Source: Candidatus Saccharimonadota bacterium
Lineage (GTDB): Bacteria > Pseudomonadota > Gammaproteobacteria > Enterobacterales > Enterobacteriaceae
Assembly: GCF_964059045.1 (NCBI RefSeq)
Contig: NZ_OZ060402.1
Location: 450,001-482,000 of the forward strand
DNA length: 32,000 nucleotides
Direction: 5' to 3'
Positions 1,805 through 30,698 of this stretch are shown one piece after another. Each line of letters opens with the position of its first letter. Positions within the stretch are counted from its first letter, which is position 1. Under the pieces are notes generated by a model, which saw only the letters and a program-made list of their open reading frames with translations, searched no databases and was not told where the DNA came from. Both the position numbers and the translations under genes were made by a program.

Positions 1805-2428
1805 ATTATTTATCATGATAAAACAATAAAATTAAATATAATATTGTTCTGATAATTTCTATTGTTGATTAAACCATCAAGAATTTATTTTGATATTATA
1901 TCAATAGAATAAATAATTATATTTAATATTTTATATTAAAAATATATGTCAAAAAAATAGACATATTTTAAAATTATTTAAAATACAATAATTTTTAATG
2001 CATTTTTTATCTTTTTATGCAATATTTTAAAAATAATTCAAAATTTATAAATTCTATTTAAAAAAATAAATAATTTTTATTATTTTATTAATTCAATGAT
2101 TATTAAAAATTATTTTTATAATCAACAATATTTTTTAAAATTAATTATTTATCAATCTTAATTGATTATCTAATAATAAATTTATATATAAAATATTTTT
2201 TAAAATTTTTAATAAAAATATAATTTTATTTTCAAAAATAATTATTATTAATTAAAAGTCAATTATAAAAATATATATATATATAAAATTATATTAAAAA
2301 AATAATATATTTTTTATAAAAAAAATGTATTTATATAATTTTTAAAAAATTATATTTTCATTAAAAATTATTTTATATAAATTAACATTATTCATTAACA
2401 ATATATCATTAAAGTGCTCAATAAAAAT

Positions 2429-6111: not shown

Positions 6112-6755
6112 ATGAATTCAATATATGCAATATTTGGTGGTTCATTTGATCCTATTCATTATGGACATTTAAATATAATAAATAAAATTATCAAAGAAAT
6201 AAAACTTAAAGAAATAATAATTTTACCTAATTATAAACCAATATATCGAAATAAATCGATTACGAATATTATTCATCGAATTAAAATGATCAAATATGCT
6301 ATATCTAATCAGATTCAATATAAAATTAATTTAATTGAAGTAAAAAAAAAATTATTTTTACTATAAACACATTAAAAATAATAAGATCAGAAATAGGAGC
6401 AAAAAAACCTATTGTTTTTATCATAGGAGAAGATAATTTAATTAATATACAAACTTGGAAAGAATGGAACAAATTATTAAACTTTTGCCATTTAATAATT
6501 TGTCCTAGAAAAAATAACAACTTAAAATTAAATCAAATATTAAAAAAATGGATCCAGAAAAATAAAATTACTAATATAAATTTATTAAAAAAAAGTGCAT
6601 CTGGATATATTTTTTTTTCAAAAATTAATTGTATTAATATTTCTTCAACAGTAATCAGAAATATGTATTATCAAAATCAAAATGAAAAAAATTTAGTACC
6701 TCAAAAAGTTTTAAACTATATAAAAAAACATAATCTATATCAAGATCCTTCATGA
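6112..6755 (+). pseudogene. nadD: Nicotinate-nucleotide adenylyltransferase NadD, split by a frameshift inside an A10 run (6342-6351) and possibly still expressed via slippage
   Basis: The N-terminal 84 codons (6112-6366, GGSFDPIHYGH motif) stop at TAA 6364-6366. The rest of the protein continues without stops in the frame whose codons start at multiples of 3. It reads KKKIIFTINTLKIIRSEIGAKKPIVFIIGEDNL...NISSTVIRN...VLNYIKKHNLYQDPS* with TGA at 6753-6755. One extra A gives about 214 aa, against 213 in E. coli. Confidence 0.9.
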
Positions 6756-8369: not shown

Positions 8370-8457
8370 TTCTTCAGTATCACCAACTGTTATTAAATTT
8401 TATTTTCAAAAATATTATGTATAATTTTATTATGTTATAATAATTAATAATTTATTT

Positions 8458-8509
8458 AATTATTAATTATTATCAGTAATTAATAATTATTAATTATTAA
8501 TTATTAATT
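8458..8509. repeat. Short degenerate tandem array of the heptamer AATTATT in the asd-yhgN divergent spacer
   Basis: Read directly. There are two copies at 8458-8471, one degenerate copy (AATTAAT) at 8478-8484, and three copies plus a partial at 8485-8509. It is low-complexity AT sequence. Confidence 0.6.
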
Positions 8510-9011
8510 GATATAATAAATATAAATATTAATAGTTTCAATAAAATATTAAAAAATATTTTTTTAAAAAAATCATAAAGATAAATATTATCTTTAATTA
8601 AATTAATATGTAGAATACATTATAAAATAAAATATAAATATTTATATATATTTTAAAAATTCATAAAATAATCAATGTATATTAATTATAAAAATAATTA
8701 TTATAATTAATATATTTATGTTAAGTTTTCAATACACAGTATCAAAAAAAAATTAATCAATATTATCATTATTGTATTTTTTTTTAAAATATATCATAAA
8801 AACAAAAATATTTAGTATTCTATGATTTGTTTATAATAATGATCAAACTTTTAATTCAAAATAATAATTTTGTATATATTTTATATAGTATCTAATTATT
8901 ATTTATAAAATATTAAAAATTTTTATTGTGCATTTCAATGTTATATTTGAAACAATAAAATAGATATATATATTTGATATATTTATACTAATATATTTTA
9001 GGATAAAATAA

Positions 9012-9871: not shown

Positions 9872-11032
9872 ATGCCTCTCAAAACTATTTCAGAAATTGA
9901 TATTTATAAGAAAATAGTATTAATTCGTGCTGATTTAAACGTACCTATAAGAAATAATGTTATTGAATCTGATGCTAGAATTCTTGCAACATTACCTACG
10001 ATTCAATTTGCGCTTCAAAAAAAAGCAAAAGTAATTATTATGTCTCATTTAGGTAGACCAAAAGAAGGTATCATTGATAAAAATTTTTCTCTATATCCAA
10101 TATTTGAATATTTTAAAAAAATATTACCAAATCATAAAATTAAATTTTCTAATACATATTTAAATGAAATTAATAAAGATTTTCAAGAATTAACGATTTT
10201 AGAAAATGTAAGATTTAATTTAGGCGAAAAAAATAATGATACGTTACTTGCTAAAAAATATGCATCATTATGTGATGTTTTTGTCATGGATGCTTTTGGA
10301 TGTGCTCATAGAAAACAAGCATCTACTCACAAAATCATTCAATATGCTAAACAATCGTGTGCTGGTTTATTATTTATGAAAGAAATAAATTCACTAACAA
10401 CAAATTTAATTAATCCAGAACGCCCTATGGTGGCAATTATAGGAGGATCAAAAGTATCTACAAAATTTAATGTATTAAAATCAATAACAAAAATAGCGGA
10501 TACTACAATTGTCGGTGGAGGTATTGCTAATACATTTATTGCTATTAATAATAATATAGGACAATCTCTATATGAACCAGAATTTATTAATGCAGCCAAA
10601 AAATTAAAAAATAAATATAATATTCTAGTACCTATTGATTCACATGTAAAAATAAATCAAAATCAAAATTTCACATCTACGATAAAAAAAATATCAGATA
10701 TCAATGAAAACGAAGAAATTATGGATATGGGAACAGAAAGTATTAAAAACATGATCAAAGTTCTAAAAAACGCTAAAACTATCTTATGGAATGGTCCTGT
10801 TGGTGTTTTTGAAATATTAAAATTTAGAACAGGAACTGAAGCTCTAGCAAAAACTATAGCTGATAGTCATGCTTTTTCTATTGCTGGAGGAGGTGACACA
10901 TTATCCGTCATTGATATGTTTAATATTAAAAAAAATATTTCTTATATCTCTACAGGAGGAGGTGCTTTTTTAGAATTTATTGAAGGTAAAAAATTACCTA
11001 CTATTTCTATTTTAGAAAAATATAAATTATAA
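9872..11032 (+). CDS. pgk: Phosphoglycerate kinase
   Basis: 386 aa. IRADLNVP, SHLGRP.EG, LENVRFN.GEK, CDVFVMDAFG.AHR, RPMVAI.GGSKVSTK, VGGGIANTF, ILWNGP.GVFE and SIAGGGDT...ISYISTGGGAFLEF match Pgk. An AAGGA Shine-Dalgarno sequence lies upstream. Confidence 0.97.
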   Translation: MPLKTISEIDIYKKIVLIRADLNVPIRNNVIESDARILATLPTIQFALQKKAKVIIMSHLGRPKEGIIDKNFSLYPIFEYFKKILPNHKIKFSNTYLNEINKDFQELTILENVRFNLGEKNNDTLLAKKYASLCDVFVMDAFGCAHRKQASTHKIIQYAKQSCAGLLFMKEINSLTTNLINPERPMVAIIGGSKVSTKFNVLKSITKIADTTIVGGGIANTFIAINNNIGQSLYEPEFINAAKKLKNKYNILVPIDSHVKINQNQNFTSTIKKISDINENEEIMDMGTESIKNMIKVLKNAKTILWNGPVGVFEILKFRTGTEALAKTIADSHAFSIAGGGDTLSVIDMFNIKKNISYISTGGGAFLEFIEGKKLPTISILEKYKL

Positions 11033-20409: not shown

Positions 20410-22238
20410 ATGAATATAAAAAATATATTAATATTGACTTTTAAAAAAAAAAAATTAGATCTATTGATCTATATTTTGCATTATATATTGGACAAAAACA
20501 ACATAATTTAATTATACTGGCTGCAGCATTAACAAGTTATGCAATTGGAAATGGTCATATTTGTTTACCAATTAAAATTCTTAAAAAAAATATTCTTAAT
20601 TTAGAACATGTTTTATTATTAAAAAATAAAATATCTAATTTAATTGGACCTGAAAAGTTATGGCATGAAATTTTTTTAAAAAGTGATACTATTGGTAATG
20701 AATTTATAATAAAACCATTAATTTTATATAATAATTGTTTATATTTATATAATACTTGGAAAGCCGAACAATCAATATTAAATTTTTTGTATCAAAAAAA
20801 TAATATATATATTCAAAATCCTATCCAATATAAAAAAATATTAAACAATTTATTTCAAGGTGATAAAAAAAATTTTCAAAAAATAGCTGTTGCTATGGCA
20901 ATGATGCAAAAAAAATTATTTATTATTGGAGGACCTGGTACAGGAAAAACTACTATTATTGCTAAAATTATTATAGCATTAAATAAAATAAATTTAAAAC
21001 CAATTAAAATAAAACTAGCTGCTACCACAGGTCAAGCCGCTTCTCATTTAACGCAATCATTAAACAATACATTATTGCAACATTCATTAAAAAACAATAC
21101 TAAAAATTTAATCTATACAGCTACAACCATTCATAAATTAATAGGAATTAAATCTGATTGTAATCGTGTAAAATTTCATAAAAAAAACACAATAGATGTT
21201 GATACTTTAATTATTGATGAAAGCTCTATGATTGATTTATTTATCATGGAAAAAATAATTCAAGCATTACCAAAAAACGCACAAGTAATTTTTTTTGGAG
21301 ATATAAATCAATTACCAGCAATAGGAAATGGGACAATTTTAAAAGATATTTGTTGTTTTGCTCAAAATAAATTTAATAAAATTTCAAATTTATTAAATTT
21401 AATCACTAATTATAATATAAAAAATAATAAAAATTCTAATTTTATTAATGATCATGTTTGTATTCTAAAAAAAAATTATAGATTTAACAATAATTCTGGA
21501 ATTCATAAATTATCACTATCTTTAATGAATCAAGATCAAAAAATATTTTTAAAAATAAAAAATAATTATTTTAAAAATGTCAAAATATATACAATTAATT
21601 CTCAAAAAAAATATATATATATGTTAAACAATATTATTAAACAATATTCTATTTATTGGGAAAAAATTTTTAATCAGGAACCAATTAAAAAAATAATTAA
21701 AACTTTTTATGAATATAGATTAATAGGTGCAATACGTCATGGTATATTTGGAATTGAAGATATCAATAAAAACATAGAAAAAAAAATGCAAAAAGAAGGA
21801 TTTATTCAATATAAAATTAAAAATAATTATATAGATTACTTAGGAAAACCTATTATCATTACTAAAAATAATAAAATGTTAGGATTATTAAATGGAGATA
21901 TTGGTATTATGCTCTATAATCATAACAATTTAGAAGCATGTTTTTTGTCAAACAATGATAAAATTAAAAAAATACCAATAAATATTCTGCCAGAATATGA
22001 AACAGCCTGGGCTATGACAATACATAAGTCCCAAGGTTCAGAATTCCTACATACTGCATTAATTTTACCTAATATTATGAATTTATTATTAACAAAAGAA
22101 TTACTCTATACTGGAATTACTAGATCTAAAAAAACATTAATCATATATTCTGAAAAAAAAATATTATTACAAACCATGAAACAAAAAACGAAACGTTTTT
22201 CTCAAATTTCTAATAATATATTAAAATATCAATCATAA
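20410..22238 (+). pseudogene. recD: Exodeoxyribonuclease V alpha subunit RecD, split by a frameshift inside an A12 run (20443-20454) and possibly still expressed via slippage
   Basis: ATG 20410 opens a 33-codon ORF (MNIKNILILTFKKKK...) that stops at 20509-20511. From the A-run onward, the frame with codons starting at multiples of 3 is open to TAA 22236-22238. It reads IRSIDLYFALYIGQKQHNLIILAAALTSYAIGNGHICLP...GGPGTGKTT...IIDESSMIDL...TIHKSQGSEF. With one extra A the N-terminus aligns without gaps to E. coli RecD (R17, D20, F23-A24-L25 coincide). The total is about 609 aa against 608. The ORF-track start (TTG 20787) is an internal Leu codon. Confidence 0.9.
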
Positions 22239-24642: not shown

Positions 24643-25105
24643 CATAATAATTATAAAATATTTGTCATCAAAATATTATTTCATGTGTATCATCACTACA
24701 CAATAATTATATTTTTATATCAATCATACAGATTATTTTAATAATCAATATATAAAAAAAAATAATTTATCTTTCATTTTAAATATTTAAAAAACTTTTT
24801 TAAAATTAGTAATAATAAATTTTTTGATTACAGATATTAATATTAAATATATTAATTATCTTTTTATTCAATATAATAAATTATTTCATTTTAAAAAAAA
24901 TAATATTTAAATTAATGTCAAAAAATATATGAAAAAATTTTTTAATTTTTATATTTCAACATCGATGTATAATTAGGACTAAATAATTCATATATATAAA
25001 ATATTTTTAATATAAAAATAATTTTTTAAATAAAAAAAAATAATACATTGTATTATTTTAAAGTAATATATTAAGATTATTAATATTTTTACAAAAGAGA
25101 TAATT

Positions 25106-29763: not shown

Positions 29764-30099
29764 TTAATGAATCATCAAATGATGATTTAAATTATACATA
29801 ATCCAGATAGAACCAGAAATAATAATTAATATAACTATAATAGTAAAAATAATAAAAACTATGCTCCAAATGTCATAATCAATTGTATTAAAATTAAAAA
29901 AATATCGAAAATGAACTAAAATTTGCAAAAAACAAAATATTAAAATAATACTGATTATTATTATTTTTGATAAATGATATTTTGTTACTAAATAAAATGG
30001 AATTAAAGTAAAAATCATTGATAATAATAATCCTATACAATAAAATTTTTTTAAATCATTAATTAATTGTAAAGAATAATTATTTTTTTTAAAATTCAT
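29764..30099 (-). CDS. cyoD: Cytochrome bo3 ubiquinol oxidase subunit IV
   Basis: I trimmed the 138-aa ORF-track call to the internal Met (MNFKKNNYSLQ...), giving 111 aa against 109 in E. coli. The C-terminus GSIWIMYNLNHHLMIH matches GSIWIMWNLNYNMMVH. This ATG (30099-30097) overlaps the cyoC stop in a TAATG junction, so the upstream 27 codons lie inside cyoC. Confidence 0.85.
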   Translation of the reverse strand: MNFKKNNYSLQLINDLKKFYCIGLLLSMIFTLIPFYLVTKYHLSKIIIISIILIFCFLQILVHFRYFFNFNTIDYDIWSIVFIIFTIIVILIIISGSIWIMYNLNHHLMIH

Positions 30100-30698
30100 T
30101 AACAAACTCCAAATAAATATACAAAAGTAAATAAAAAAATCCATATAATATCTAAAAAATGCCAAAATAAACCCAAACATTTCATTCTAGTATACATGAC
30201 ATTATTTAAACCTATTTTTTTTAATTGTAATAAAATCACTATAATCCATATTAATCCTATTATAATATGTATTGCATGTAATCCAATTAAAGTAAAATAA
30301 GCAGACAAAAAACCACTTCTCTGAGGTCCATAATTTTTAGATAATAATTTACAAAATTCATATATTTCAATACTAACAAAACATAAACCAAACAAAAAAG
30401 TGTTAGACAACCAAAAATAAATTATTTTTTTTTTAGATTCTAAAAAACTAATAACAGCCATACCAAAAAAAAACGAACTAAATAATAAAACAAAAGTTTC
30501 TGCTAACACCAATGGTAAATTTATGATGATCATTCCATAAATGTTGTAATCTAAATCATTTAACAATACTGCATAAACAGCAAACATCGTTGAAAAAATA
30601 ATACAATCACTCATTAAATACAACCAAAAACCTAATAATATTTTTTTATTGACAACATAATTACTATTCAAACTATTATTTTTATTTAAAAATTGCAT
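30099..30698 (-). CDS. cyoC: Cytochrome bo3 ubiquinol oxidase subunit III
   Basis: 199 aa against 204 in E. coli. GFW.YLMSDCI.F...FA.Y, ET..LL.SS...G.A, YF.L.G.H..H...G and LFWHFLD.IWI are conserved. It lies between cyoB and cyoD. Confidence 0.92.
   Translation of the reverse strand: MQFLNKNNSLNSNYVVNKKILLGFWLYLMSDCIIFSTMFAVYAVLLNDLDYNIYGMIIINLPLVLAETFVLLFSSFFFGMAVISFLESKKKIIYFWLSNTFLFGLCFVSIEIYEFCKLLSKNYGPQRSGFLSAYFTLIGLHAIHIIIGLIWIIVILLQLKKIGLNNVMYTRMKCLGLFWHFLDIIWIFLFTFVYLFGVC

Follow-up and report, generated by a model that had tools for sequence, protein, structure and literature searches.

A frameshift within a poly(A) tract of nadD in Buchnera of Eriosoma grossulariae: slippage rescue or gene loss

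The nadD locus and its two reading frames

The window, the whole 32-kb stretch of DNA analysed here, has a GC content of 19.7% and carries the gene order ybeY-corC-leuS-holA-nadD-tusA-asd-...-pgk-fba-mscS-recCBD-argA, as in other Buchnera; the segment leuS-holA-nadD-tusA-asd is also seen in the Buchnera loci L081-L091 and L094. Pgk (9872-11032) shares 100% of its residues with that of Buchnera aphidicola (Eriosoma grossulariae); the Buchnera of E. lanigerum, at 73%, and of E. harunire, at 66%, come next. The likely source of the genome is a study that included E. grossulariae Buchnera, sequenced by Illumina HiSeq2500 2x251, and in which genes frameshifted at A/T homopolymers were annotated as functional, after Tamas et al. 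2008 (bioRxiv 10.1101/2022.08.28.505559). No NadD product from E. grossulariae Buchnera was found in the protein collection, though its Pgk was present.

Between holA and tusA, nadD is divided over two reading frames that meet at a run of ten A residues (Table 1). The ORF list and its translation show the 5′ frame ending in ...LIEVKKKLFLL at a premature stop codon, and the extent of this 84-codon ORF, the position of the A10 run and both stop codons were as the first-pass annotation had given them. Across the run the zero frame reads GTA AAA AAA AAA T, with a slippery heptamer A_AAA_AAA in phase from 6342. In the −1 frame, TGA 6336-6338 is followed by 138 open codons that start at 6339, with the translation SKKKIIFTINTLK...NISSTVIRN...VLNYIKKHNLYQDPS. 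Both frames are open across 6339-6363 only, a segment of 25 nt in which A10 is the sole long homopolymer and a T5 run is also present; the frameshift was thus rightly placed in A10, whereas the overlap of the two frames is wider than the A run to which it had been said to be limited. Just 11 tracts of at least 10 nt occur in the whole window, and by our own arithmetic a random 25-nt segment is expected to hold one about 1% of the time, so that the coincidence of the frame change with A10 is not a matter of chance.

Table 1. Features of the two frameshifted genes in the window
Feature	Coordinates	Strand	Description
nadD 5′ reading frame	6112..6366	+	ATG 6112; 84 codons, of which 80 true NadD and 4 out of frame (LFLL); premature stop TAA 6364-6366
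A10 tract, frame-change site	6342..6351	+	context GT-AAAAAAAAAA-TT
nadD 3′ part, −1 frame	6339..6755	+	134 NadD codons past the tract, then TGA 6753-6755
recD 5′ frame	20410..20511	+	ATG 20410; A12 at 20443-20454; out-of-frame stop 20509-20511
recD body, −1 frame	20445..22238	+	597 codons open

Insertion of one A in the A10 run gives a protein of 214 aa, and a −1 slip on A_AAA_AAA yields the same protein as one extra A in the mRNA; this equivalence, proposed in the first-pass annotation, is supported. The junction of the 214-aa protein runs ...IEVKKKIIFTINTLK..., with ...EVKKKIIFTINTLK... as the predicted junction peptide and ...INLIEVKKKIIFTINTLK... as the stretch that such peptides would span; the junction reads EVKK-KIIFTINTLK, and relatives have ETKKNKTFYTIDTLK at the equivalent place. 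In the 3′ frame the first ATG, GTG or TTG codon is ATG 6663, which comes after 108 codons and from which 30 aa remain. Since the 3′ part is without a usable start codon, it is expressible only via a frame change. The possibility that it forms the independently translated half of a split enzyme was rejected because no canonical start is found for 108 codons.

The frameshifted gene is, judging from profile and structure-based comparisons, nadD, encoding nicotinate-mononucleotide adenylyltransferase. With the frame repaired, the 214-aa protein reaches 202.7 bits on NF000839, the NCBIfam equivalog model for NadD, whose cutoff of 187 is reached only with one A added, 175.7 against TIGR00482 (cutoff 112.45), and matches Pfam PF01467 with E = 1.4e-24, whereas the ORF encoded by the DNA as it stands covers residues 1-80 only. 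The alignment of the repaired protein to the E. coli NadD structure 1k4k pairs residues 1-211 with 1-213 and has only one gap, of one residue, beside the junction. The (T/H)xGH motif is kept as GGSFDPIHYGH (6136-6168), aligned to GGTFDPVHYGH of 1k4k, and the ISxTxxR ATP-binding motif, encoded in the −1 frame, is kept as ISSTVIR (6639-6659), aligned to ISATIIR of E. coli NadD. In an alignment with 27 other Buchnera-type NadD proteins, all 20 invariant columns are retained. The conserved blocks quoted in the first reading of this DNA are present, these two motifs included, and its view that the gene has no other lesion agrees with the end-to-end alignment to 1k4k and with the retention of motifs and invariant columns: apart from the frameshift, nadD has neither premature stops nor indels, and no motif is lost.

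Tract length, a possible recoding site and a second frameshift, in recD

It could be that no fixed frameshift exists, the tract having been under-called by one base through a sequencing or assembly error, or A10 and A11 genomes being mixed in the polyploid Buchnera population, of which the assembly would show one state. A second gene of the window, recD, is likewise out of frame at a long A tract (Table 1), where the addition of one A gives MNIKNILILTFKKKKIRSIDLYFALY... / MNIKNILILTFKKKKIRSIDLYFALYIGQKQH... and an N-terminus colinear with the intact RecD of the Buchnera of E. lanigerum (MKIKYILEQAVKKNKIRCIDLNFALY...) and E. harunire. Both genes need exactly one extra A in a long tract, the A12 of recD being the longest of the window, and the probable source libraries were PCR-amplified (12 cycles), all of which would agree with such a reading. 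In another Buchnera species, holA, an essential gene for the DNA polymerase III delta subunit, has a tract near position 711 that is A10 in three assemblies (L084-L086), where the gene is split into 79 + 223 aa, and A11 in a fourth (L087), where an intact protein of 331 aa is encoded; this variation within one species represents either tract polymorphism or assembly variation, and tract length therefore varies between samples or assemblies. On the other hand, the probable source data are manually curated Illumina 2x251 reads, and of the 44 coding tracts of at least 9 nt in the window 42 are in frame, including two A11 and seven A10 or T10, so that nadD and recD are the only exceptions. Frameshifts of like type in nadD of other Buchnera, described below, moreover recur over many independent data sets. 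We consequently consider it quite unlikely that the nadD frameshift is an error or a mixture of tract lengths.

The presence of A_AAA_AAA in the correct zero-frame phase, where a −1 shift would lead to the same 214-aa NadD, also raises the possibility of programmed −1 ribosomal frameshifting helped by cis-acting stimulators. The model for such a mechanism is dnaX of E. coli, in which the slippery heptamer (A_AAA_AAG) is likewise made of lysine codons and the shift likewise goes in the −1 direction. dnaX has a Shine-Dalgarno-like element ahead of the slippery site and a hairpin after it, and its shorter product is made on purpose. The nadD locus differs from dnaX in that such stimulators were not found and in that a shift would lead to the complete protein, not to a truncated one. 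The 80 nt past the tract (6352-6431) fold at −6.8 kcal/mol (z = −0.76), and 50 of 200 shuffled sequences fold at least as well; no Shine-Dalgarno-like element was seen 10-14 nt upstream of the slippery site when the sequence was read by eye; and the slippery tract is not conserved in NadD orthologs. Programmed frameshifting of the dnaX type is thus highly improbable, and it was rejected as the main mechanism at nadD for want of a stimulatory RNA structure.

nadD in other Buchnera

Within the aphid genus Eriosoma, nadD has met different fates. In the Buchnera of E. lanigerum (OZ060395.1; L092/L093), the closest relative available, the gene is wholly gone from between holA and tusA, and the slot is occupied by a 534-nt spacer of 9.2% GC (L093 6355-6888) in which no NadD similarity was detected by tblastn or by Smith-Waterman alignment against shuffled controls; the protein search returned no NadD from E. 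lanigerum Buchnera either. The Buchnera of E. harunire, in contrast, encodes an intact NadD of 220 aa without a lysine run (EINNQFIY at the position of the tract), and the A10 tract is, on this comparison, specific to the lineage of E. grossulariae. With an intact gene in E. harunire, a shifted one in E. grossulariae and an erased one in E. lanigerum, three states of nadD are therefore found in one aphid genus. A second sequence of E. grossulariae Buchnera was not found by exact-protein look-ups with the 84-aa ORF, Asd and Pgk, and a pattern scan of metagenome contigs over the nadD tract, allowing a variable length of the A run, gave no match.

The outright loss of nadD in E. lanigerum Buchnera implies that its absence is tolerated in this clade. 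It also makes the term "essential", which the first-pass annotation had applied to NadD, unsafe here, and a pseudogene that has just been born becomes a serious rival explanation for the gene in the window. According to this explanation, A11 contracted to A10 recently and in reality, NadD is no longer needed, any slippage product is incidental, and the frameshift is the first step on the path already taken by E. lanigerum Buchnera. The lineage-specific nature of the A10 tract, with EINNQFIY in its place in E. harunire, and the occurrence of a second poly(A) frameshift, that of recD, within the same 32 kb would both be in keeping with it, and homopolymer indels have been called key events in the inactivation of endosymbiont genes (PMC3017870; PMC5574713).

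A protein search returned four fragments from other Buchnera (P0024-P0027) that hold the N-terminal 143-148 aa of NadD. In the corresponding loci (L081-L083, L084-L087, L088 and L089-L091; nadD at 1501-2150 in most), nadD is shifted at a different site, a PRxHKKK motif encoded by an A9 or A10 tract at codons 136-139, the tract of the window being at codons 78-80. All four lineages need exactly one extra A, after which the remaining 76-79 codons are open to the natural stop. Three of the four frameshifts were found again in independent assemblies (JGI and Logan), with P0026 on 20 contigs, and the fourth, that of P0025 (L088), is known from one contig. Neighbour-joining placed three lineages together in a clade and the remaining one as sister to intact orthologs. 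One member of the clade has a Pgk identical to the sequence named for the Buchnera of Hyperomyzus lactucae and can be assigned to it.

The PRxHKKK frameshift appears to be common to the three lineages of this clade, between which pairwise dS amounts to 0.5-0.66 and dN/dS to 0.12-0.17 before the shift and 0.25-0.37 after it. Under neutrality, at a d of ~0.25 per lineage, each of the tails would have remained open with a probability of about 0.015-0.035. The parsimonious reading is that the shift is ancestral to the clade, although repeated toggling of the tract would weaken the argument. If it is ancestral, purifying selection has acted on the out-of-frame tail, which must therefore be translated. 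The shared shift with its open tail thus argues that rescue works for nadD, and the recurrent frameshifts of nadD in these other Buchnera lineages appear to be selectively maintained. Gene, synteny, an A9 or A10 tract, the need for one A and an intact downstream frame are the same in the Buchnera of Hyperomyzus lactucae and the three Aphidinae-type lineages as in the window; the tract, however, is another one, and its clade-wide sharing, with recovery from more than one assembly in three of the four lineages, supports long-term maintenance there, unlike the tract of the window, which belongs to a single lineage. These apparently maintained frameshifts elsewhere in Buchnera may be of more interest than the case in the window itself.

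At least three independent contractions at two lysine-codon tracts can be counted in nadD, in E. grossulariae Buchnera, in the Hyperomyzus-type clade and in the L089 lineage, and the downstream frame is intact in all of them. One could imagine from this that nadD is a recurrent slippage-dependent gene in which the poly(A) shift is tolerated, or even favoured, as a crude attenuator, with tract length toggling its expression. We think this rather unlikely. If true, NadD output would be lowered in this way in bacteria that have lost almost all transcriptional regulation, and the change between A9, A10 and A11 would act as a toggle on expression in the course of evolution or from one genome copy to another.

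Selection and possible slippage at nadD

Whether the nadD of E. grossulariae Buchnera is decaying can be approached from its tail. If nadD is a pseudogene it must be very young, because a neutral tail would soon gain a stop codon. The 134-codon tail offers 86 possible single substitutions that create a stop, and in a neutral simulation with the intergenic composition of the window (~9% GC) it stayed stop-free with a probability of 0.62 at d = 0.01, 0.10 at 0.05 and 0.014 at 0.1 substitutions per site. A young pseudogene would thus need the shift to have occurred under about 0.05 substitutions per site ago, and this on a long branch. Since synonymous sites are saturated between the window and E. 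harunire (55% amino acid identity, ~20% GC), a Tajima relative-rate test on amino acids with eight outgroups was chosen over dN/dS to compare the NadD of the window with the intact NadD of E. harunire. Lineage-specific amino acid changes numbered 12-18 in the former versus 23-30 in the latter (e.g. 15 versus 25), a pattern that holds in both halves of the protein, and the Pgk control, with 22-30 versus 37-44 changes (e.g. 29 versus 40), gave a ratio resembling that of NadD. No acceleration of nadD relative to E. harunire was hence detected by this test in either half. The GC content of nadD is 18.3%, as against 9.2% in the neutral spacer that replaces the gene in E. lanigerum, and no sign of decay was found in motifs, rate, composition or stops. 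This lack of rate acceleration and of compositional decay, together with the persistence of frameshifts with open and constrained tails at a different tract in other Buchnera, speaks against the pseudogene explanation, to which we nevertheless leave a substantial minority share of probability. The first-pass claim that the gene is still under selection holds up to the recent past, given the absence of acceleration and the 10% neutral chance of a stop-free tail at 0.05 substitutions per site.

The reading that we prefer, if with no better than even confidence, is that nadD is still in use through NadD made by leaky slippage. A run of lysine codons in nadD would have become a long poly(A) tract in the E. 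grossulariae lineage, and this tract would then have shrunk by one A, from A11 to A10, most likely through replication slippage, resulting in a real genomic frameshift. The 84-residue product encoded by the DNA is presumably inactive, because it is without the second ATP-binding motif. The most likely route to an active enzyme would be RNA polymerase slipping backward on A10 and adding one A in some transcripts, so that only these would give the full-length 214-aa NadD (...EVKKKIIFT...); a minor share might come from unassisted ribosomes sliding −1 on A_AAA_AAA. As full-length NadD would stem from the slipped fraction only, nadD would be expressed at a reduced, leaky level. Both the slippage at the nadD A10 itself and the need for the NadD product are inferred.

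Slippage of the kind proposed here is known from Buchnera and Blochmannia, as the first-pass annotation had stated and as PMC3017870 and PMC5009743 relate with reference to Tamas et al. 2008. For long poly(A) runs of these two endosymbionts, PMC5009743 gives 12-50% frame-corrected transcripts, after Tamas et al. 2008, and PMC3017870 cites about 30%. Of 157 insertions in Buchnera transcription, 151 lay in homopolymer runs and most were of single bases, and the rate of such errors at A/T runs climbed exponentially as the runs lengthened, up to 11 nt (PMC5574713). A one-base insertion, the dominant error at Buchnera runs, is in the direction that nadD needs. However, the same CirSeq study saw no Buchnera transcript in which an error had restored the reading frame (PMC5574713), and rescue by slippage may for this reason lie far below the 12-50% obtained by RT-PCR cloning. 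A further counter-point to rescue is that the recD lesion, 14 kb off, fits ongoing erosion equally well; in our view, recD is dispensable in a reduced genome.

The case in the window resembles the slippage-rescued endosymbiont genes that have been described, such as dnaX, dnaG, pth and others of Blochmannia vafer, in that the bacterium is an extremely AT-rich obligate endosymbiont, the indel is of a single base and lies in a sense A run of at least 9 nt, the gene is otherwise intact and one extra A restores the frame (Tamas et al. 2008; Wernegreen et al. 2010; PMC3017870). It differs from this class in that the closest relative is without the gene and in that it is known from one genome sequence. 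A poly(A) frameshift in pheA, conserved across the Buchnera of Periphyllus and Chaitophorinae, shares with it the bacterial species, the reasoning on rescue, the likely authors and the annotation policy; the verdict of rescue for pheA was based on the conservation of its frameshifted tract across related strains (bioRxiv 10.1101/2022.08.28.505559). Our literature search found no description of a frameshift in the nadD gene or at this tract. Given that the class of poly(A) frameshifts is well known in Buchnera and routine for annotators, nadD in the window is a credible but ordinary further example, and it reveals no new mechanism. The call made for nadD decides whether the Buchnera of E. grossulariae is credited with making NAD from nicotinate mononucleotide, and the case bears, more generally, on whether the metabolic capacity of reduced symbionts is underestimated when pseudogenes are called automatically at homopolymers. 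Along the series formed by the intact gene of E. harunire, the shifted one of E. grossulariae, the erased one of E. lanigerum and the shifted but constrained genes of the Macrosiphini clade, one could measure for a single enzyme how slippage rescue and gene loss balance each other.

Several other features of the region were recorded in passing. Three unusually long spacers of the window (1805-2413, 8370-9011 and 24643-25105; 460-640 nt) gave no ORF, tRNA or Rfam match and may be the remains of eroded genes; as examples, lptE is absent between leuS and holA, and ribH-ribD are in another order than in E. coli. In E. harunire Buchnera, recC (L094 13796-16958) is called as two pieces of 726 + 298 aa with no homopolymer of at least 9 nt at their junction; recC is a single gene of 1080-1081 aa in the window and in E. 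lanigerum Buchnera. On the minus strand, at 29764-30698, the ORF list gives two putative genes that share 82 nt, named by us cyoD (29764-30180, 138 aa) and cyoC (30099-30698) on the basis of sequence and gene order; the upstream start of the shorter ORF, labelled cyoD, is probably not the real one.
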